Positions 7,631-18,561 of a stretch of DNA of 64,000 nucleotides are shown in pieces. The position numbers and the translations under genes are program-made. Every line of letters starts with the position of its first letter. Position 1 is the first letter of the stretch. The notes under the pieces are model-generated. The model was given only the letters and a program-made list of their open reading frames with translations, was not told the DNA's origin and did not search any database. Location of the stretch: the NCBI GenBank assembly GCA_050248995.1, contig JBFWRI010000003.1:28619-92618 (forward strand), in the 5' to 3' direction. Origin of the DNA: Bdellovibrionales bacterium (GTDB lineage Bacteria > Pseudomonadota > Alphaproteobacteria > JAIXQD01).

Positions 7631-8659
7631 ATGATCCCCGATACGCCCAAAATTCTATTTTGCCTGACCGACGCTACCACCAAGGACGGGTTGCACTTTG
7701 AAGCCATGAACACGGCGTTGGCGGCGAAGGGCTTTATTTTTGCCGGCGAAGGCACAACCACCACCGGCAAGGTGCTGTTGGTCTACTTCACGTACGAAAT
7801 CGCGCCGAAGGAAAACATATTCAGCCGGCGCTATCATCTGCATGCGGCATTGCTCCCCCTCAAGCGCGCGCAAACGCTGGCGGCCGACGGCAGCGCTTTC
7901 GCGGCACTTGTCAGCAAGGCCAAACAGGGCGACCGCGACCTGAGACTGCGGCCCGGCGACGAATTTATTGCCGACCTCTCCAGCAACCGCGCGCGCTCGT
8001 CTGTCTGGGTTATCCGGCGCAACGGGCAGAAGCTGTTACGCAAGGCCTTCAATGCCGGCAGCATAGCATTTGTCGAACGCGAAGTTCTGGCCCGCAGCAT
8101 CATCAAGGATACACGCATGGCACCTATCGTCTTGCGCGAGGGGAATGTGCTGTACATGCCATTCTACCAGACAGGCTATGTCTGGCGCGAGGGCCTGCTG
8201 AACTTTTACCCGCGCCCGAAAGCCGCGCAGATCTTTGATTTTCTCGGCGCGATCAACCGCCAGGGCTATTCAATGATCGATATCAACCCCTCAGCCTTTC
8301 TGTGGGATGAAACTGGCGCTTTAAGGGTCGTTGACTTTGAGTTCTTCACGCAAACCCGCGTTGCCGACGATCTGAGAAAAAGCGTCGATTTCATCGGCGA
8401 TGTCGGCCACCTGCCAGCGCCGGCCAAAAATGGTTACAAACGCTACTGGTATGACCCGCTGGGCGGGCCATGGCCCCGTATTATGGAATATAACAAGGGC
8501 ACACGGCTTGTTGTTAAAGCCCTGCACCTGCTGTTTTACCGTTTGCCAAGGCGCGCGGCCAAGACTCTGGATCGCGCCCGCAAATCGGCGCTTACTTATC
8601 TCGCTGCTGCACGCGACCTGAAAGCGGGCGGGCTAAAAGACGGGTACTTTAATATATGA
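7631..8659 (+). CDS. hypothetical protein with atypical protein-kinase-like (Kdo/RIO-kinase-like) fold
   Basis: 342 aa. Segment SMIDINPSAFLWDETGALRVVDFEF resembles the catalytic loop plus the DFx metal-binding motif of Kdo/RIO-type kinases, with the catalytic His replaced by Met. ATGA overlap with the next gene. Confidence 0.55.
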   Translation: MIPDTPKILFCLTDATTKDGLHFEAMNTALAAKGFIFAGEGTTTTGKVLLVYFTYEIAPKENIFSRRYHLHAALLPLKRAQTLAADGSAFAALVSKAKQGDRDLRLRPGDEFIADLSSNRARSSVWVIRRNGQKLLRKAFNAGSIAFVEREVLARSIIKDTRMAPIVLREGNVLYMPFYQTGYVWREGLLNFYPRPKAAQIFDFLGAINRQGYSMIDINPSAFLWDETGALRVVDFEFFTQTRVADDLRKSVDFIGDVGHLPAPAKNGYKRYWYDPLGGPWPRIMEYNKGTRLVVKALHLLFYRLPRRAAKTLDRARKSALTYLAAARDLKAGGLKDGYFNI

Positions 8660-10107
8660 CACCTGAAACTTTTCTTCGCGATCGCCTTGTACTGCTGGCA
8701 GGCACACCCGCCGCCACAGCCACCGATGTGCGCAACCATGCGCCGCGCGACGTGCTGGAGATGAATGTCAAAAAATCATCGCAGGTCGGCGCCACCAACT
8801 GCGACGCTGCTGTTTTATGCGGAAAAGCCGGCGCTGCCCTGCGTTCGCGCCGGTTTATCGACACCTTTATATATATAGCTCTGCCGTGGGGTTCCGGCTG
8901 GCTGGCCGCCCTGCCCGGCCTGTTGCGTTACGCCCTGCGCGGCGCCCTTAAATATCGCGGTACAATCACGCTGGCCGGTTTTACCCTGCCGGTACCGGTG
9001 TTCGAGAACAAGCGCACGGGTTCGCGCAAGCGTGCCCGTGTTTATGCGCCCAACTGGCCCGCGCTGAAAATCATGCAGATGCTGAACGACACCGACTGCA
9101 TTGCCCTGCGCTGGATTGAAAGCATCGAAGACGGTTCACACACGGGCGATATCGACATTCTGGCCGGCAGCGGCGACTTGCAAACCATCCAGCAGCGTTT
9201 TCGCACGCACGCCGGCACACAGGCAATCGACCTTTATAGTTCGGATGCCAGCGGCGGCTGCGTGTTCAAGGATGTCGCCTACTTCCCGCCCTTCATGGCG
9301 CGGCAGATGCTGGCCACTGCCGTCACGCGGCCCAGCGGCATCAAGGTTGCGAACGACGAATGGCGCTTTGTGTCGTTCTGCTATCATCTGTTGTTCCATA
9401 AATCCGAACAGCTGGCGATCGGTGCCGAGGAATTGACCGAGAAAAGTTTTTCACGCCCTGATTACGTGCGCGAACTGCAAAGGCTGGCAGCCGCAGCCGG
9501 CCAGCCTGCCCCACGCAGCATCACCGACATCGAAAACCTGCTGAAAGCCCGCAACGTATTCCCTGAAATCGACACCATCGGCTTCCTGAGCACCGGCAAC
9601 AGGTTCCTGCAGCATCGCTATTATAATAAAAGCGGCGATTACATGCCGGGTCTGACGGTTTTTCTGGCCCGCGACTTCGGGCTTGAAGGCGATATCACCA
9701 CCGATATCCGCCGCCAGATTGAAAGTGCCGGGTTCAGCATCCTGCATGAACGCCCGGTTGACCCGAACACGCAGCACGCTGTCGTGCACGCCATCCGTGG
9801 CGGCAACTGGTCGGATAGCGTCGCGCCCGGCGGTATCGCACTGCCGCTGCACGCCTATGTTGCATATGACGCGCAGCCGCTGGCAATCAAAGGCGGCGAC
9901 GCCAAGCGTTACCCGCGTCTTGATAACGCGCGTACGCTTTTAAAGAAATCGGTGCGCGAGGGTTACGCCGCACAGGCCGGTGTGCGCAAGGTCAACATCC
10001 TGCATGCCAGCGATAACACTGCCGAAGCCGTCGGCTATGTTGCGGCGCTGGGCGTCGGTGAAATCCCGGCGGTAAAGGAAATCCTTACCCGTTTGCGCAA
10101 GACCTAG
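8656..10107 (+). CDS. hypothetical protein (483 aa), translationally coupled to upstream kinase-like gene
   Basis: Start overlaps the upstream stop (ATGA). No confident domain. GSHTGDIDIL is reminiscent of nucleotidyltransferase motifs but too short to assign. Confidence 0.5.
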   Translation: MTPETFLRDRLVLLAGTPAATATDVRNHAPRDVLEMNVKKSSQVGATNCDAAVLCGKAGAALRSRRFIDTFIYIALPWGSGWLAALPGLLRYALRGALKYRGTITLAGFTLPVPVFENKRTGSRKRARVYAPNWPALKIMQMLNDTDCIALRWIESIEDGSHTGDIDILAGSGDLQTIQQRFRTHAGTQAIDLYSSDASGGCVFKDVAYFPPFMARQMLATAVTRPSGIKVANDEWRFVSFCYHLLFHKSEQLAIGAEELTEKSFSRPDYVRELQRLAAAAGQPAPRSITDIENLLKARNVFPEIDTIGFLSTGNRFLQHRYYNKSGDYMPGLTVFLARDFGLEGDITTDIRRQIESAGFSILHERPVDPNTQHAVVHAIRGGNWSDSVAPGGIALPLHAYVAYDAQPLAIKGGDAKRYPRLDNARTLLKKSVREGYAAQAGVRKVNILHASDNTAEAVGYVAALGVGEIPAVKEILTRLRKT

Positions 10108-11466: not shown

Positions 11467-12783
11467 CTATTGCTCGGTCAGTGCATTATCGGTTGCTGTT
11501 CGGATTGGCTTCATCATGTAGGCCAGCACCGTTTTCTCGCCAATCACAATATCACTATCCACTGTCATGCCGGGTATCACTTTGTGCTCCCGCGGATTAT
11601 GACCCGCATAGCCACGTGAGAGTTCAACGCGCGCACGATAATAGTCTTCCAGCGTTGCCTCATCGCGAAAGACACTGGGCGAAATACTTGTAATCGTGCC
11701 AGGGATGCTGCCGAAGCGCACATAGTCGAACGAATCAACTTTCACCTGCACGGTCTGCCCCGTGGTTACCCGGCCAATCTGCCCCGGCGGAATACGGATT
11801 TCCACCACCAGCCTGTCGTCCATAGGTACAATTTCCATTAGCGTCTGACCGGCTGGCACCACGGCGCCGATCGTATTCAGCTTCAGCCCCTTCACATATC
11901 CGGCAACTGGGGCGCGCACATCCAGCCGCGCAACGCGGTCCCGACGCTTCTTGAGCGCTTCGCGCGCTTGGGCCAAATCGGTTTCCGCCCGCTGCAACTC
12001 GCCATACAATGTATCCCGCTGCTGCACGGTCAACGTTGCCAGACGCTGGTGGTACTCCTGCAGTTCGGCGTCGGCCTCGCTGACCTGATGCTTGAGACTA
12101 CCAGCCATACCCTTGCTCGCATTATACTCTTCCTGGCGTTTGATATACATCGTGCGCGCTGCGTAACCCTGTTTGAAAAGCTTTTCATATATGTCACGGT
12201 TTTCAGCCGCCAGCTTCAGGTTGGATTGCGCGACTTCCGATTCCTGCCGCAGCCGGGCCAGCAGGGTTTGTTTCTGGGCAATCTGGTTTTCCAGTACAGT
12301 GCGCTCGGTCTGCAGGGCCTGCTGTGCCGTATTAAACATACGTACCTGTTCATCTGTCTTGAATGCGGGCGCACGGTCTTCAACCAGCGCGCGCAATTTC
12401 TCTGCCTGGAATTCCAGCGCTGCTACCAGCATCTCCTGCTGCCGCATGTCTTCGGTAGTGCCCGCCCCATCCAGCACCACTAGCAATTGGCCTTTCTCGA
12501 CATAGGCGCCCTCTGTCACCGGGATATCCTGGACGATCCCGCCTTCAAGGTGTTGCACCAGCCGTACATAGCCACTGGGAATGATCTCGCCTTTGGTGCG
12601 CACCAGCTCCTTCACCGGCGCCACCGCTGCCCAGCCGACGAACCCGAATGTTGCCAGGCACAGCGTAATAATGGCGGTTCTTACAAGTCGCGACGGGGGT
12701 TCTGCGCCCTGATCCTGCGCTGTTATAAAGGCCTCGATGCTGGCATCGCCAAAAATATCAAGAGGTGTGACATGACGCATGTT
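11467..12783 (-). CDS. type I secretion periplasmic adaptor (HlyD family membrane fusion protein)
   Basis: About 438 aa from MRHVTPLD. One N-terminal TM helix, a long coiled-coil region and a C-terminal beta-barrel-like region typical of HlyD. Last gene of the T1SS operon. Confidence 0.85.
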   Translation of the reverse strand, partial: NMRHVTPLDIFGDASIEAFITAQDQGAEPPSRLVRTAIITLCLATFGFVGWAAVAPVKELVRTKGEIIPSGYVRLVQHLEGGIVQDIPVTEGAYVEKGQLLVVLDGAGTTEDMRQQEMLVAALEFQAEKLRALVEDRAPAFKTDEQVRMFNTAQQALQTERTVLENQIAQKQTLLARLRQESEVAQSNLKLAAENRDIYEKLFKQGYAARTMYIKRQEEYNASKGMAGSLKHQVSEADAELQEYHQRLATLTVQQRDTLYGELQRAETDLAQAREALKKRRDRVARLDVRAPVAGYVKGLKLNTIGAVVPAGQTLMEIVPMDDRLVVEIRIPPGQIGRVTTGQTVQVKVDSFDYVRFGSIPGTITSISPSVFRDEATLEDYYRARVELSRGYAGHNPREHKVIPGMTVDSDIVIGEKTVLAYMMKPIRTATDNALTEQ

Positions 12784-14509
12784 CTTCTCCTGTCTTGGCG
12801 ACAAGCGCCGGCTTACCAATACTGGGCACAACGCCCTGCTTCATCCAGATTACTTTGTCGGCCAGTTGCAGCCAGTTGTTATGGTGGGTAACGAAGATGA
12901 CCGTGCGTTTGCCGCGACATTCATGCAGGAAGTGTCGGAAGTGCGCGCCAGCGTTACTGTTCAATACATGACCCGGCAACTCGTCACATAACACGATCGG
13001 ACGCGCGGCCAGGTAAAGGCGTGCTAGATTTAAGCGGGCGGCCAATGTGTCTGACAATGCGGTGCCCTCTGCTCCCAGCTGCGCATGGATGCCCTGTGGC
13101 AACGCTTCGACAGCGTCCCATGCATCAGCGCGCTGCAGGGCGTCGCGGATATCGGCTTCACTAGCTGCGGCGTTCACCATGCGCAGGTTTTCTGCCAGCG
13201 TTCCGGGCAGGAACTCCGGCTCCTGCGACAGATAGGCAATCTGGCGCCGCAATACGCGGGGATCCAGCTGTCGATGATCTATGCCGTCAAAGCGTACTGT
13301 GCCCATGCCCGGCGTATTCAAGCCCAACAGCAGCCGCACAAGGCTCGACTTGCCGCTGCCATTGCTGCCATAGATGGCCACGATGTCGCCTTTGTTGATG
13401 CGGGCGTTCAGCCCCCAGAATATCGGGTCGGCCCCGGGTGCATAACGCAGCGACACATTCTGAAGCTCGATACCGCCGTGCAGGCGCGCGAAGCCGGGCG
13501 CCGTCGTATGTGCATGACGCTCGGGTGTCAGTGCCATCACCTGCAACACCTGCTGCAACGCCTGACGCACCTGCCCGAAGTGCGGGACAAGGGCACAAAT
13601 CGCCTGCAGCGGATACAGCAGGCGCCAGGTAATGATCATCGTTGCTACCATGGCACCGCCCGTCATTGTGCCACTCCATACACAGTGCAGTGACCAGTTG
13701 ATGATGACAACGCCCGCCACCACCGACAGCAGTGCCGATATATATTGCACGGCTGTTGCCAGCAGATTGTGCCGGCACTGGAGCTGCGTTGCCCGTCGGC
13801 TGATGCTCCGATAACGCTGGACTACCGTATCGGCCATACCAGCCGCATAAATCATCTTCATGTTGTCGATACTTTCCATCAACAGCAATTGCCGCTCAGC
13901 CGCAGCCTGAGTCATCTCGCGTCCCATGCGCTGCCATGTCCCTGCCAGCATCACCAGCAGCAAGCCATAAATGGCCAGCACGCCAAGGCCGACCAGCGCC
14001 ACTGGCCCGGCCAGCAGCCCCAGTACCAATACAAGTATCCCCATATAAGGCACTTCCAAAAGCGTCAGGAACATAGGCCCCGTCAAAAAGTCACGCACGG
14101 ATTCAAACGCGCCGGCGCGGGCCATCTGCGCCGCGACCGGGGCGCGCGCACCTAAGGAAGCAGGCACGAAAAGCAGCCGCCTGAACAATGACTGCCCCAC
14201 ATCACGGTCAAGCCGGACACCCAGCCATGCCACCAGCCGCGAACGTACGGCACGGAGCATGAATTCGGTTAGGAATGCGCACGCCATGCCTGCCACCAGC
14301 ATCGGCAGTGTATCCAGGGCCTGCACGCCAATCACGCGGTCATACACGATCATGCAAAAGACGGGTACGGCCAGCATGAATATATGAACGCCGAGGCTTA
14401 GCAACATCACCGGCATCAGTAGTGGTCGGCAGCGCTCTAGCGTCATGCGCCACCATGTGTCGGCTGCCTGCGGCGGCGACTCAGTTGGTACGACGACTGC
14501 CGCTGTCAC
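12758..14509 (-). CDS. type I secretion ABC transporter half-transporter B (TMD-NBD, no C39 peptidase domain); degenerate signature motif
   Basis: 583 aa. N-terminal 6-TM exporter domain with YDRV motif. Walker A GSNGSGKSS, Walker B IVLCDELPG and H-loop VTHH are intact. The signature position reads ALSDTLAARLNLARL instead of LSGGQRQRIAIAR. Confidence 0.85.
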   Translation of the reverse strand: MTAAVVVPTESPPQAADTWWRMTLERCRPLLMPVMLLSLGVHIFMLAVPVFCMIVYDRVIGVQALDTLPMLVAGMACAFLTEFMLRAVRSRLVAWLGVRLDRDVGQSLFRRLLFVPASLGARAPVAAQMARAGAFESVRDFLTGPMFLTLLEVPYMGILVLVLGLLAGPVALVGLGVLAIYGLLLVMLAGTWQRMGREMTQAAAERQLLLMESIDNMKMIYAAGMADTVVQRYRSISRRATQLQCRHNLLATAVQYISALLSVVAGVVIINWSLHCVWSGTMTGGAMVATMIITWRLLYPLQAICALVPHFGQVRQALQQVLQVMALTPERHAHTTAPGFARLHGGIELQNVSLRYAPGADPIFWGLNARINKGDIVAIYGSNGSGKSSLVRLLLGLNTPGMGTVRFDGIDHRQLDPRVLRRQIAYLSQEPEFLPGTLAENLRMVNAAASEADIRDALQRADAWDAVEALPQGIHAQLGAEGTALSDTLAARLNLARLYLAARPIVLCDELPGHVLNSNAGAHFRHFLHECRGKRTVIFVTHHNNWLQLADKVIWMKQGVVPSIGKPALVAKTGEEHASCHTS

Positions 14510-16230
14510 CGGGCCACCCCATAGCGCAGAGCCGGCTGCGCAACCACACCTGCGTGACGCACAGTCAGCACGCCATGCCGCAGCTCGTAAATACGGTCGG
14601 CCAGCCCGAGGATGTTTTGATCCTCAGTCACCAACACCAGTGTCACGTTGCGCCTAAGACGCATCAGCATACTGAAAACCGAAGCGTAACTGGATCTGTC
14701 CAGCCCCTGGCCGGCATTATCAAACAACCCAGCGCGCGGGCGCTGCAGCAAAACACGCGCGATAGCAATGCGTTGTTTGAGGCCGGGCGATACCGCGTCA
14801 CTAATAGTGTTGTCCAACTGCGTTTCGTACCCGGCCGGCAGCAGCGCCACAGCCGATTCAATACCCAGCGCCGTTGCCAGTAGGCGCACATCAGCGGGTG
14901 GACGATCCTGGAAACCCGTGATGTTGTCCATGATTGTGCCACGCAGGATCAGTCCGCGTGTCGGCAGATAACCGATTGCCTGCGCACGCGCCGTATCAGT
15001 TAGCTGCGATGCATCAACGCCCCCCAGAAGCACGCGTCCGCTGTCGGGCGCATAAAGCCCTGCCATCAGTTCCAGCAGGGCTGTCTTGCCGCACCCGGCC
15101 GGGCCTGTGATAGCAATAGCCTCGCCCGGCATTACCGTCAGCGAAAGCTTGTCAATAACAGGGCTGCAGGCGCCAAACGACAGTTGCGCCTGTTGCAGTT
15201 TCAGCGGCACCGGACCCAGTATCGCGCCGGGCTCAACCCGCCGCGTTTCAAGTTTCATAATCGTGGCAAGCCGCTGGGCCGCCACGTTGATGTCCTGCCA
15301 GCGCAACCACAGGCCAGCTCCGCGCTGAACGTGCTGCAGGATCTGACCCGACAGCATTATCCCAGCCGCCAGCATACCGCCTGTGATCATGCCCTTTACC
15401 GCCAGTACCGCACCAACCCCCATTAACGCCGTTACCATGATCTGGGCGCCCAGATAGCCAAACGTGCCCGACGCGCTTTGCAAACAGGCCAACCGGTAAA
15501 GAACGGGCGCCCCTGCACGCTGCAAGTCATCGTAGCGTTGTGCTACGTCGCTTTCCCAGCACATAGCCTTGATGGTAGGCAGCGCCTGCAAAGCCTGGCT
15601 GGCGAATGTGTGCCGCCTGTCATCATGACGCTCGCGCGCGGCGGTCAGGTCACGCAGAGCACGGCCGTGGCGAACAAACATAAGTATGGCGATGGCAATA
15701 CCGCCGACCGTTACAAAGACCAGAGGGCCGGTCAGGTAGAATGTCAGCACCAGAAACAGGACAGCGAAAGGTATATCGACCAGCAGTGTCGCCGTCATCT
15801 GGCCTCCATAGTATTCTTTGAGACGCTGGACGGCGTTGATATCCTGCACGCGCACAGTGGTTGTCTTGCTGGCCTGGCGACGCGGCTCGATTGCAAGCAG
15901 ATGCGCCAGCGCGGCCGACGACATCGTTTCATCGAACCTAGCGGCCGTTCTGGACGTTACCGTCTGGCGCAACAGACGCAACAGACACTCGGCCAGCGCG
16001 GCAACCAGCACACCCGCGGACAAGATTAGCAGCGTATCGGCGGCACGGCTAATCATCACACGGTCATAAATCTGAATTGTCATCAGCGGCAGCGCCAGGG
16101 CCAGCAGGTTGATGGCAACCGATGATCCCATAACCAGCGCAGCGTGTGGCGTGCGAAGCATCAGGCGGTACGATGACGGGATAAGAGACACCAGATAAAC
16201 CTCAAGTTGTATATGTTGATGACCGTACAA
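14506..16230 (-). CDS. type I secretion ABC transporter half-transporter A (TMD-NBD, no C39 domain); degenerate Walker B/H-loop
   Basis: 574 aa. Walker A GPAGCGKTA. Near-consensus signature VSPGLKQRIAIARVLL. Walker B position GLFDNAG (catalytic Glu -> Asn). H-loop position VTED (His -> Glu). 4-nt overlap with the downstream ABC gene. Start uncertain: TTG at 16230 or ATG at 16161. Confidence 0.8.
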   Translation of the reverse strand: MYGHQHIQLEVYLVSLIPSSYRLMLRTPHAALVMGSSVAINLLALALPLMTIQIYDRVMISRAADTLLILSAGVLVAALAECLLRLLRQTVTSRTAARFDETMSSAALAHLLAIEPRRQASKTTTVRVQDINAVQRLKEYYGGQMTATLLVDIPFAVLFLVLTFYLTGPLVFVTVGGIAIAILMFVRHGRALRDLTAARERHDDRRHTFASQALQALPTIKAMCWESDVAQRYDDLQRAGAPVLYRLACLQSASGTFGYLGAQIMVTALMGVGAVLAVKGMITGGMLAAGIMLSGQILQHVQRGAGLWLRWQDINVAAQRLATIMKLETRRVEPGAILGPVPLKLQQAQLSFGACSPVIDKLSLTVMPGEAIAITGPAGCGKTALLELMAGLYAPDSGRVLLGGVDASQLTDTARAQAIGYLPTRGLILRGTIMDNITGFQDRPPADVRLLATALGIESAVALLPAGYETQLDNTISDAVSPGLKQRIAIARVLLQRPRAGLFDNAGQGLDRSSYASVFSMLMRLRRNVTLVLVTEDQNILGLADRIYELRHGVLTVRHAGVVAQPALRYGVAR

Positions 16231-16312
16231 CCCAAAGTTTAATCAAAAATGACTTCCTCCTACGCCTGTAACCGCACCGCCTGTACATATTTACAGCGAT
16301 ATGCGCGTCGCT

Positions 16313-18337
16313 CTATCCATTGCCGAACAACCCACCACCAAACAGACCACCCGTCAGAGGTTCCACGGCAGGCAATGATGTAATGGTCGCGACCGGCAGG
16401 ATTTCGGCGACGGGCAGTATATCCGCTTCCGGCATACTATCCAACAGCAGCGTGTCCACGATATCCAGCGAACTTTCAACTGCGCCAGCCAGTTCCGGCA
16501 GCATGGTTATGCTTTCGTCAACGAATTGTGTCGGCTCGACTTGCTCTAAAACAGCGGTGGCATCGATATCCTCATCGACCGCTCCGCCTGGTTCCAAGAT
16601 CCCACCCAGCATATCCGGATTCATGTCCGGCAGCATCTCGGTCGTACCAACAACAAGGGTACTGTTATTATCACCTTGCGTATCAAGCGTCAGCCATGAC
16701 GAATTCAGCAGGTCAGTATTCGATTCCGAAGCCGTATGAGAAAGAAGGTCAATGTCGATCAAGTCGTTATCTTCAGCCTGGTCCGACCGGCTAAGGATAT
16801 CAATGTCCACCAGATCGTTATCACTAGCAGTGGCATTGCTGGCATTCTCGCCCAGAATGCCTATATCAAGGTCGATGATGTCGTCGTCCTGAACAGCCTG
16901 TGTCGAGTTACTTCCCAGCAGCGCCACTCCGACGTCAGCGATGTCATTGTCATCACCTGCCTGCTGCGCATTGTTCCCCAATATACCCGCATCAAGATCC
17001 ACGGTATCGCTGTCTGTCAGCACGGCGACGTTGTTGTCTTGCAACAGGGCGATATCGCCGTCGACAGGATCATTGTCCGTGGTTGTGCCACGCTCAAAGC
17101 CCGACCCCGTAACACCTGGCGAGGCAAGATCAATCAGACCGGACGCACCAATCAAGTCTGGGGCCACCGAAGCGATATCGTCCACACCTGCTACGTTAAG
17201 GATATTGCCGGTCTGTTCATTAGCAACGTCCTGAGCCAAGCCCGTTATATTCGTCAGCATATCAAGCCCCCCTTCTGCGCCTGCATCGACGCTATCTGTC
17301 AATGTCGCTTCTAAAAGTGCATTGAAAACATTCCCCCACCCATCCTGTGTGGCGGCCATAACATCTGCCGCCACTGCCGTAACGCCATCAGTCATACCGT
17401 TCACCATCAGCAAAGTGTCCTCAACGAGGTTGCCGGCATCCCCGGCCGCAAGAGAAGCCAACATGTCAGGCAGCGGTTCGGTTACCGGTGATAAAACAGT
17501 TTCCACACTCTCTGTGGCAGCCGCCAGCAGGCGTGTTGCTGTTTGTGTTATGTCAACCACAGTTTCCAGCGTGCTATCAACAACTGGCGCCAAGGCCGGC
17601 AGTTCGGGCAGGATGCTGTTCCCGATTATTCCTTCAGCGATACCCCGTACGGGAGCCTCTATGCTTTCCACGATCTCGCTGACGGTTTCCGCCAGCGGCG
17701 TAACCGCGTCTGTTGCTGCATCTGTCACGGCTTCAATAAGCGTGTCGATGGTTTCACCAACATTATCTGTGATATCTGCAACCGGCAAGAATTCTGGTGA
17801 TATCGTATCAGTGAGGGTCTCGCCTACCGGCAGCCATGCTGGTGCCTTCGTATCTGCTTCCATGGCAGCAGAAGCATCGTTGCCGGCAAAACCGGGCAAT
17901 GACGGCGCCTGAGGCAGGCCCGCGCCAGCTACATTTTCCAGCGAGGTTGGAACACCGGCTATGTCGGACATCAGGAAGGGCGGTGCATCTGCCAACGCAG
18001 TGCCGTCATCCGGCCTTCTACCGTTGGCACCGGCACTGTCTGCTGCCAGATCTGCAGGCAGGCGCAGGCGACCTATAACATCCTCGAGCGCGACATCGGG
18101 AAGCCCGCCGGCCCGCAGTGCCGAAGGGCTGGCCATATTCGCGATAGCAAGATTTTCATCAAGGCGCATCACGCCAGCAAGATGCCTCTCTGAAGCAGCG
18201 TCGTAATTGATAACATGACCGATATTCAGGTTGCCCGTAGCGGCAACATTCTCCAGATCCATATTCAGCGACTGGCCGCCAAAGATATTGGCTTCACTTA
18301 GTTTGCTGGAAACTTTACTTGCAAGGTCAGTCAGCAT
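16313..18337 (-). CDS. putative type I secretion substrate: acidic, Cys-free repeat protein with Gly-rich C-terminus
   Basis: About 675 aa from MLTDLASKV (GGAG 8 nt upstream; the ORF-track start 18523 is an extension). Very high D/E/A/T/V content. Tandem repeats of roughly 20 aa (DNDIADVGVALLGSN / DDDIIDLDIGILGEN / DNDLVDIDILS / DNDLIDIDLLS). C-terminus ...PLTGGLFGGGLFGNG. Directly upstream of the ABC-ABC-HlyD genes. Confidence 0.6.
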   Translation of the reverse strand: MLTDLASKVSSKLSEANIFGGQSLNMDLENVAATGNLNIGHVINYDAASERHLAGVMRLDENLAIANMASPSALRAGGLPDVALEDVIGRLRLPADLAADSAGANGRRPDDGTALADAPPFLMSDIAGVPTSLENVAGAGLPQAPSLPGFAGNDASAAMEADTKAPAWLPVGETLTDTISPEFLPVADITDNVGETIDTLIEAVTDAATDAVTPLAETVSEIVESIEAPVRGIAEGIIGNSILPELPALAPVVDSTLETVVDITQTATRLLAAATESVETVLSPVTEPLPDMLASLAAGDAGNLVEDTLLMVNGMTDGVTAVAADVMAATQDGWGNVFNALLEATLTDSVDAGAEGGLDMLTNITGLAQDVANEQTGNILNVAGVDDIASVAPDLIGASGLIDLASPGVTGSGFERGTTTDNDPVDGDIALLQDNNVAVLTDSDTVDLDAGILGNNAQQAGDDNDIADVGVALLGSNSTQAVQDDDIIDLDIGILGENASNATASDNDLVDIDILSRSDQAEDNDLIDIDLLSHTASESNTDLLNSSWLTLDTQGDNNSTLVVGTTEMLPDMNPDMLGGILEPGGAVDEDIDATAVLEQVEPTQFVDESITMLPELAGAVESSLDIVDTLLLDSMPEADILPVAEILPVATITSLPAVEPLTGGLFGGGLFGNG

Positions 18338-18561
18338 CGCGGTCTCCATATGAATATGTGAAAATGAACGAGCGATAGAAAACACCACGACCTTAGCGCG
18401 CCGGTTTTGCGAACGGCTTAATGGGCGACATATGGATTGCAGAGAAATTGAAATGGATTTTAAGCACTGCGGAACAGAGCGTCGGCTGCGACGTCCTTGG
18501 TATCCTGCGTCCGGATGATGCAAACGGGCACCAGTACCAATGGTTACATGTGTACGTACGG

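Follow-up and report, generated by a model that had tools for sequence, protein, structure and literature searches.

The window analysed here is a whole stretch of 64 kb of contig JBFWRI010000003.1 (assembly GCA_050248995.1), from a metagenome-assembled genome labelled "Bdellovibrionales bacterium", and its subject is a set of four co-directional minus-strand open reading frames (ORFs) that spans 11467-18523. These encode an acidic protein of 736 amino acids (aa), two adjacent ATP-binding cassette (ABC) half-transporters, termed A and B, and a HlyD-type adaptor of a type I secretion system (T1SS). ABC_membrane and ABC_tran domains were matched in both A and B (Pfam), and the four ORFs lie as follows.

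16313..18523, minus strand: candidate substrate, a maximal ORF of 736 aa with the C-terminus ...LTGGLFGGGLFGNG*
14506..16230, minus strand: ABC half-transporter A, 574 aa, a transmembrane domain followed by a nucleotide-binding domain (TMD-NBD), without an N-terminal domain
12758..14509, minus strand: ABC half-transporter B, 583 aa, TMD-NBD
11467..12831, minus strand: HlyD-family T1SS periplasmic adaptor (membrane fusion protein), a maximal ORF of 454 aa that overlaps the end of B

The GTG start of B and the TGA stop of A share 4 nt (GTGA). Gene calls are shorter for three of the four ORFs, with 674 aa for the acidic protein in a Logan contig (start ~18337), 561 aa for A with the PGAP/Logan start (~16191) and 437 aa for the adaptor (start ~12780). 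The same operon is present on this Logan contig (L001), the product of a separate, independent run; the two B proteins are identical, and the A proteins differ by one internal residue. The residue in question is Gly501 of the window A (14728-14730), located in the hydrophobic Walker B strand (RAGLFDN), a position occupied by Val in the Logan contig (RAVLFDN) and by Leu/Ile in the family; the Gly/Val difference is a strain polymorphism inside an already degenerate site. Promoter and terminator scans of the operon gave nothing better than shuffles.

The ATP-site motifs of the two half-transporters were placed by phmmer (HMMER) alignments to HlyB (7sgr) and ABCB4/BSEP, and by a MAFFT alignment with RtxB/RtxE and other T1SS ABC proteins, which yielded the following positions.

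15166-15183, minus strand: A-loop of A, Phe, from the alignment
15082..15105, minus strand: Walker A of A, GPAGCGKT, intact, aa 376-383
14953..14970, minus strand: Q-loop of A, YLPTRG, Gln replaced by Thr
14755..14793, minus strand: signature of A, VSPGLKQRIAIAR, aa 480-492, containing VSPGLKQR
14698..14736, minus strand: Walker B and D-loop of A, RAGLFDN with the catalytic Glu replaced by Asn505, then GQGLD with the Asp kept
14620..14634, minus strand: H-loop of A, LVTED, His replaced by Glu536
13433-13450, minus strand: A-loop of B, Tyr, from the alignment
13346..13369, minus strand: Walker A of B, GSNGSGKS, intact
13217-13234, minus strand: Q-loop of B, YLSQEP, intact
13019..13057, minus strand: signature of B, LSDTLAARLNLAR, degenerate, LSDTL (GG to DT, Q to L)
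12959..12997, minus strand: Walker B and D-loop of B, IVLCDE with Asp-Glu intact, then the degenerate D-loop GHVLN with the Asp lost (HVLN vs SALD)
12881..12895, minus strand: H-loop of B, FVTHH, His present

An earlier note on this DNA had located the same ORFs and motifs, and the alignments to HlyB, ABCB4/BSEP and RtxB/RtxE agree with it. Its account of A as having Asn for the Walker B Glu and Glu for the H-loop His was confirmed, as was that of B as keeping Walker A, Walker B and the H-loop with a ruined signature; to these were added the loss of the Q-loop Gln in A (YLPTRG) and of the D-loop Asp in B. The description of the A signature as near-consensus was not borne out, with Pro in place of the first Gly and Leu in place of the Gln of LSGGQ[RK]QR, and this signature reads instead as a conserved, family-specific variant of that consensus. 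The prospect that careful alignment would render both subunits canonical was also checked, and neither subunit is canonical.

Relatives were drawn from a scan of one genome per GTDB species, from which 80 loci were retrieved, and all motif counts given here refer to 67 complete A/B pairs. A search with A led to about 40 clusters that share its odd motifs, and an A relative is encoded in at least 129 species genomes; the pairing with B is kept in at least 67 genomes besides the window. Across the pairs, the Walker A Lys is found in 59 of the A proteins (Arg in 7) and in all 67 of the B proteins, and an aromatic A-loop residue in 65 and 67, respectively, the latter all Tyr. The Q-loop Gln is absent from every A and present in 55 B proteins. 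Likewise, no A has the catalytic Glu (Asn in 58), which 65 B proteins keep, and the preceding Walker B Asp is found in 45 A proteins (Asn in 15) and in every B. The H-loop His is missing from all 67 A proteins, with Asp in 43, Asn in 12 and Glu in 8, and is seen in 18 B proteins, the others having mainly Tyr (23), Asp (13) or Gln (7). The B H-loop residue also tracks clade, being His in the clade of the window, Gln in Rickettsiaceae-type loci, Asp in Desulfobulbales and Tyr in Micavibrio and many Alphaproteobacteria.

The two signatures are opposite in character. That of A has a near-invariant core (Pro in 65, Gly in 67, Leu in 52, Lys in 61, Gln in 67, Arg in 66 and Ile in 67), preceded at the Ser position mostly by Pro (42, against Ser in 8), whereas that of B is variable, with SGGQ in 0/67 and an entropy of about 1.4-2.7 bits per position. 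The D-loop Asp follows the same division, present in A in 67/67 and in B in 0/67. By these counts, the elements of the composite site formed by the Walker side of B with the signature and D-loop of A are all conserved, and those of the reciprocal site are without exception relaxed or replaced. The complementary degeneracy proposed in the earlier note, which leaves one consensus and one degenerate composite site, was in this way found to hold family-wide in the survey of 67 complete pairs, and it extends beyond the motifs first considered to the D-loops, Q-loop and A-loop. A pseudogene or chance degeneracy was rejected as an explanation because the pattern is kept across these 67 pairs.

The arrangement of the genes is as constant as the motifs. 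The order A, B, adaptor was found in all 67 loci with enough flanking sequence, and the A/B junction is usually a 4-nt overlap. If each gene occurred alone in relatives, this would speak for homodimers; A without B was seen in 0/80 loci, the 12 loci that lack a full B being truncated at contig ends, and when the search was started from three B homologues, an A-type gene lay directly upstream of B in four of five places. A and B are only 26% identical and no closer to each other than either is to RtxB/RtxE (MAFFT), which makes this an old partnership that has been maintained. In one metagenome contig (L082 6072-6935), A is cut down to an NBD-only ORF of 287 aa beside an inverted che/kinase block, and the sister contig L083 has a normal A of 560 aa; the short form, the sole apparent exception to an intact pair, is either a rearrangement or an assembly artefact.

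Taken together, the sequence comparison gives good support to A and B as an obligate heterodimer, in which one ATP site is of the consensus type and the other degenerate, and the two proteins most likely work only as a pair. It is inferred that the two proteins physically dimerise in such a way that two unlike sites arise. Site 1 would comprise Walker A, Walker B (Asp-Glu), the Q-loop and the H-loop of B together with the signature (x-P-G-L-K-Q-R) and D-loop of A; it is consensus-like, and hydrolysis would be expected there. Site 2 would comprise Walker A, the Glu-less Walker B and the Q-less and His-less loops of A together with the degenerate signature and D-loop of B. Since A keeps the Walker A Lys and an aromatic A-loop, site 2 probably still binds ATP, without efficient hydrolysis, and would act as a structural or regulatory "glue" site of the kind known from TM287/288, TmrAB and BmrCD. 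That such an A/B heterodimer with a single hydrolytic site drives type I secretion is a reading that can be held with good confidence.

The same observations bear on a different proposal, in which A and B would form two separate homodimeric exporters, A2 and B2, that share one adaptor and serve different substrates or conditions. Each protein is, after all, a complete TMD-NBD half-transporter, the classical T1SS ABC proteins are homodimers, and mixed assemblies are conceivable given that the HlyB/HlyD complex has three ABC dimers per assembly (PDB 7sgr title). However, both sites of an A2 dimer would be without the catalytic Glu, the Q-loop Gln and the H-loop His, and in a B2 dimer, the signature would be degenerate and the D-loop Asp missing at both sites. 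Selection maintains exactly those halves that come together in one A/B site and is relaxed on those of the other, and the strict co-occurrence of A and B and their overlapping genes also speak against separate homodimers, which are accordingly considered improbable.

Several points weigh against a heterodimeric secretion engine with one fast site. Site 1 is itself non-canonical, as the Ser of the A signature is missing from most members, with Pro instead of Gly and Leu instead of Gln. In 49/67 pairs, B has Tyr, Asp or Gln where the H-loop His would be expected, although the window B has His. In HlyB, this "linchpin" His is essential, and such variation is unexpected for a T1SS ABC protein. Its replacement in so many B proteins calls into question a fast site-1 ATPase across the family, many members of which may have low catalytic rates or an atypical mechanism. 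In addition, the T1SS-model scores of A and B are 305 and 382 bits, well under the cut-off of 693 (NCBIfam), and the relatives have a C39-like domain, a TolC and signalling genes that this locus does not, so that it could be a decaying copy.

The last of these points requires a closer look at what the relatives possess. Neither A nor B of the window has an N-terminal C39 or C39-like domain, the LssB model aligning only from position 135-154 onward, and on this domain content the pair would not be a peptidase-containing ABC transporter (PCAT, C39). The B orthologues are longer, at 690-790 aa, with 115 of the 120 best B homologues at 700-799 aa against 583 aa for the window B, and the extra N-terminal part amounts to ~140-150 aa. 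This N-terminal domain of the orthologues does not match PF03412 (Pfam C39), and a profile search with it against the PDB gave a single weak match to PCAT1 (E=0.58). An AlphaFold2 (AF2) model of the domain reached a predicted local distance difference test (pLDDT) score of 86.9, and a Foldseek search with this model returned 3b79, the HlyB C39-like domain 3zua, PCAT1 and ComA, all with a probability of 1.00. The idea that the domain was novel was dropped, as AF2 and Foldseek give a C39-like fold. No conserved Cys/His was found at the catalytic positions, and the domain is for that reason taken as a non-catalytic, C39-like one. The claim of the earlier note that C39 and C39-like domains are lacking was thus correct for A and B of the window and incorrect for the family, in which B orthologues carry a C39-like domain, among them those of the cultured Desulfosediminicola flagellatus and Marinagarivorans algicola.

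It follows from the comparison of lengths and folds that, ancestrally, only one subunit of the dimer, B, carries the docking domain, and its lack in the window is a derived peculiarity rather than a family property. The window B is the only complete short form seen, with the C39-like domain cleanly deleted and the GTGA junction recreated (window 14440-14509, compared with L002 11647-12165). The relatives differ from the window in their flanking genes as well. In about 60 loci, the next gene after the adaptor encodes a REC + HATPase_c_2 (RsbW-like) protein of ~315 aa, usually followed by a hybrid histidine kinase of ~1000 aa and then an Hpt protein (e.g., L010 15246-19739; L064 15219-20257), and upstream there is often a divergently oriented TolC gene together with one for an OmpR-type regulator. 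The REC-HATPase_c_2, kinase and Hpt genes resemble a conserved phosphorelay that is tied to secretion. Searches of the 64 kb window with orthologous sequences (tblastn) found no C39-like domain, TolC or REC-kinase genes, the Hpt and OmpR-type genes being absent from it as well, and the loss of the C39-like domain together with the REC-kinase genes may be a co-loss of functionally linked parts, seen in a single case (n=1).

In light of these absences, it was considered whether the window copy might be a degenerating, non-functional remnant, from which the C39-like domain of B, a linked TolC and the REC-HATPase_c_2/histidine-kinase/Hpt genes downstream have disappeared. The short B, the missing parts in 64 kb, the dinB-like gene directly after the adaptor and Gly501 of A, in place of the Leu/Ile of the family and the Val of the sister contig, are all compatible with decay. 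A further point for decay is that Lecher and colleagues reportedly found in 2012 the C39-like domain of HlyB to be necessary for secretion. Yet all four ORFs are intact with overlapping junctions, every family-invariant motif residue is retained, the deletion of the C39-like domain is clean with its GTGA junction recreated, and a near-identical operon occurs in an independent sample; the lack of a linked TolC is, moreover, common in T1SSs. For the window copy, the choice lies between a minimal variant and a decaying one, and as the intact ORFs and the retained invariant residues favour function, a dead remnant is rather unlikely.

The assignment to type I secretion draws on the adaptor, which passes TIGR01843 with 343.7 bits against a cut-off of 208.65, over model positions 1-422 of 422, and also matches HlyD_3, HH_AprE and Beta-barrel_AprE. 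For A and B, the best NCBIfam models are the three T1SS ABC families LssB, HlyB and PrtD, with scores far under the cut-off, and a full-length B orthologue, at 415 bits against 693, can be aligned to positions 13-684 of the 696 in the LssB model, including the C39-like region. NCBIfam holds no dedicated model for the A/B family, and the source annotations are generic ("ATP-binding cassette domain-containing protein", "peptidase domain-containing ABC transporter"). No TolC was found in the 64-kb window by tblastn with the TolC proteins of the family, and TolC (OEP, PF02321, 204 bits) is linked at many related loci. As TolC is often unlinked in T1SSs, little weight can be given to the lack of one in the window. 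Besides the adaptor, the TolC genes and RTX substrates at related loci support the assignment to a T1SS.

A pair with unequal sites might nevertheless be suspected of exporting small molecules, lipids or peptides instead of secreting proteins, as the known degenerate-site heterodimers are mostly drug or peptide pumps (PMC7756269), the scores of both ABC proteins fall under the T1SS cut-offs, and weaker NCBIfam matches were obtained to MsbA, CydDC and bacteriocin exporters. Against this stand the three T1SS families as top models for A and B, the end-to-end fit of the full-length B orthologue to the LssB model with its C39-like region, the T1SS HlyD adaptor above threshold and the finding that 46 loci encode large RTX or acidic proteins right next to the pair on its upstream side. 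A small-molecule, lipid or peptide pump is, on this balance, very improbable, and protein secretion by the A/B heterodimer is retained as the preferred function.

Those upstream proteins lead to the question of the substrate. The 736-aa ORF of the window is very acidic (D 10.5%, E 5.6%, K 0.7%, R 2.7%), has no Pfam or NCBIfam match and shows no tandem DNA repeats in its gene; homologous ORFs lie at the same position in L002, L007 and L008. At the 46 loci, A is directly preceded by a large ORF of very acidic composition, and some of these ORFs are RTX proteins (HemolysinCabind, 275 bits), while most, the one in the window included, match no family. The window protein ends in ...GGLFGGGLFGNG* (window 16316-16351, minus strand), and a G-G-L-F-G-type tail at the extreme C-terminus is present in 27 of the 46 acidic upstream ORFs as compared to 4 of 560 background ORFs; besides that of the window, the tailed upstream ORFs are those of L007, L009, L021, L037, L046, L048, L050, L051, L054 and L063-L081. 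The literature on a GGLFG motif was searched, and nothing tied to secretion was found. The conserved tail may be a new T1SS C-terminal tag, which could serve in secretion or recognition. The pump, with its HlyD-type adaptor and an unlinked TolC, most likely exports this adjacent acidic, GGLFG-tailed protein.

On the other side of the operon, a DinB/pol IV-like gene (IMS family) lies directly after the adaptor and converges on the secretion operon, and ahead of it are two overlapping ORFs of 342 and 483 aa without a Pfam match in the gene table of the identical contig. These neighbours, from the contig gene table, are placed as follows.

7631-10107, plus strand: the overlapping ORFs of 342 and 483 aa
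10172-11464, plus strand: the DinB-like gene

The mechanism of T1SSs is known almost entirely from the homodimeric HlyB, PrtD and LapB-type pumps, and in a symmetric dimer, it is hard to dissect how much ATP is used per substrate and what roles the two sites and the two C39-like domains play. If the heterodimer proposed here is correct, it would provide a natural T1SS in which catalytic and non-catalytic sites are split and the docking domain resides on one subunit, such that roles could be assigned by single-gene mutations, and it would link the mechanics of T1SSs to those of the asymmetric exporters TM287/288, TmrAB and TAP. A broader view, held with evenly divided confidence, is that of an undescribed, widespread T1SS class with an asymmetric engine (one catalytic and one regulatory ATP site) and ancestrally one C39-like docking domain per dimer, coupled to a phosphorelay and exporting acidic, often GGLFG-tailed proteins, of which the window, having lost both docking domain and phosphorelay, would be a natural minimal variant. 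The class would extend over Alphaproteobacteria (Rickettsiales and others), Micavibrio, Desulfobulbales, Bdellovibrionota and part of the Gammaproteobacteria. Predatory and host-associated bacteria (Micavibrio, Rickettsiales-like) commonly have the family, and the secreted RTX or acidic proteins in these are likely effectors.

Among known systems, the closest in principle are the heterodimeric exporters in which one NBD is without the catalytic Walker B Glu and its partner has a non-consensus signature (PMC7756269). TM287/288, TmrAB, BmrCD, LmrCD, PatAB and TAP1/2 resemble A/B in having two adjacent half-transporter genes with one consensus and one degenerate composite site. In contrast, the TM287/288-type exporters are stand-alone inner-membrane drug or peptide pumps without a HlyD adaptor or TolC, whereas A/B is part of a T1SS operon and has its greatest similarity to the LssB, HlyB and PrtD families. 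The degeneration in A/B also goes further, to the Q-loop and H-loop of A and the D-loop of B, with the Glu of A changed to a conserved Asn, and in the relatives of A/B, only one subunit has a C39-like domain.

The view of T1SS ABC proteins as homodimers, from which the earlier note had set out, is sound for the classical systems and overlooks two kinds of system with two ABC proteins, the MARTX exporters with RtxB/RtxE and the NHLP loci (PMC3034196, PMC4316617, PMC6959600). The MARTX T1SS of Vibrio (RtxB, RtxD, RtxE, TolC) needs two different ABC proteins, for which a heterodimer has been suggested (PMC3034196, PMC4316617), and this is its likeness to A/B. With rtxB/D/E taken from V. vulnificus pR99 (NC_009701), RtxB and RtxE proved to be canonical in Walker A, Q-loop, LSGGQ, Walker B DE, SALD and His alike, and because both are canonical in every motif, MARTX is not a site-asymmetric precedent. 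RtxB and RtxE are 43% identical to each other and 701-722 aa long, by length alone leaving room for an N-terminal domain, and the MARTX gene order is ABC-adaptor-ABC as opposed to ABC-ABC-adaptor in the A/B family. Membership of A/B in the RtxB/RtxE group was rejected on account of the low identity (26-28%), the other gene order and the canonical motifs of RtxB/RtxE.

The LssB/LapB- and HlyB-type transporters give the best NCBIfam matches to A/B and share with it the C39-like fold in B orthologues and, at some loci, RTX substrates. However, in these homodimers both sites are of the consensus type and both subunits have a C39-like domain, whereas an A/B dimer comes from two genes, with a single consensus site and no more than one C39-like domain (none in the window), and A, B and the B orthologue score 305-415 bits against the LssB/HlyB-type cut-off of 693. 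The NHLP/Nif11 bacteriocin loci have one ABC protein with and one without a C39 domain (PMC6959600), and the combination of two ABC genes with a HlyD-family protein (TIGR03796, ABC1 with a C39 peptidase; TIGR03797, ABC2 without; TIGR03794, adaptor) is again alike. Membership in NHLP ABC1/ABC2 was rejected, with A and B at 158-213 bits against cut-offs of 709-853 (NCBIfam). The NHLP systems export leader-peptide bacteriocins, as opposed to the large acidic or RTX proteins of the A/B family, whose N-terminal domain has no conserved Cys/His.

A review of T1SSs and tripartite pumps covers degenerate sites only for TM287/288, BmrCD and TmrAB (PMC8277102), and in the literature on heterodimeric or degenerate T1SS ABC proteins and on Micavibrio T1SSs, no published description of the A/B family was found. 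Given the Micavibrio loci found here, GMV0109 of Micavibrio aeruginosavorus ARL-13 (PMC3189940) may be an overlooked A-type partner of the "hlyB" gene GMV0110. The principle of heterodimeric ABC proteins with a degenerate site is thus known, as is the T1SS setting, and it is the combination of the two, with one catalytic site, at most one C39-like domain, a linked phosphorelay and acidic, GGLFG-tailed cargo in a conserved and widespread family, that appears to be new.

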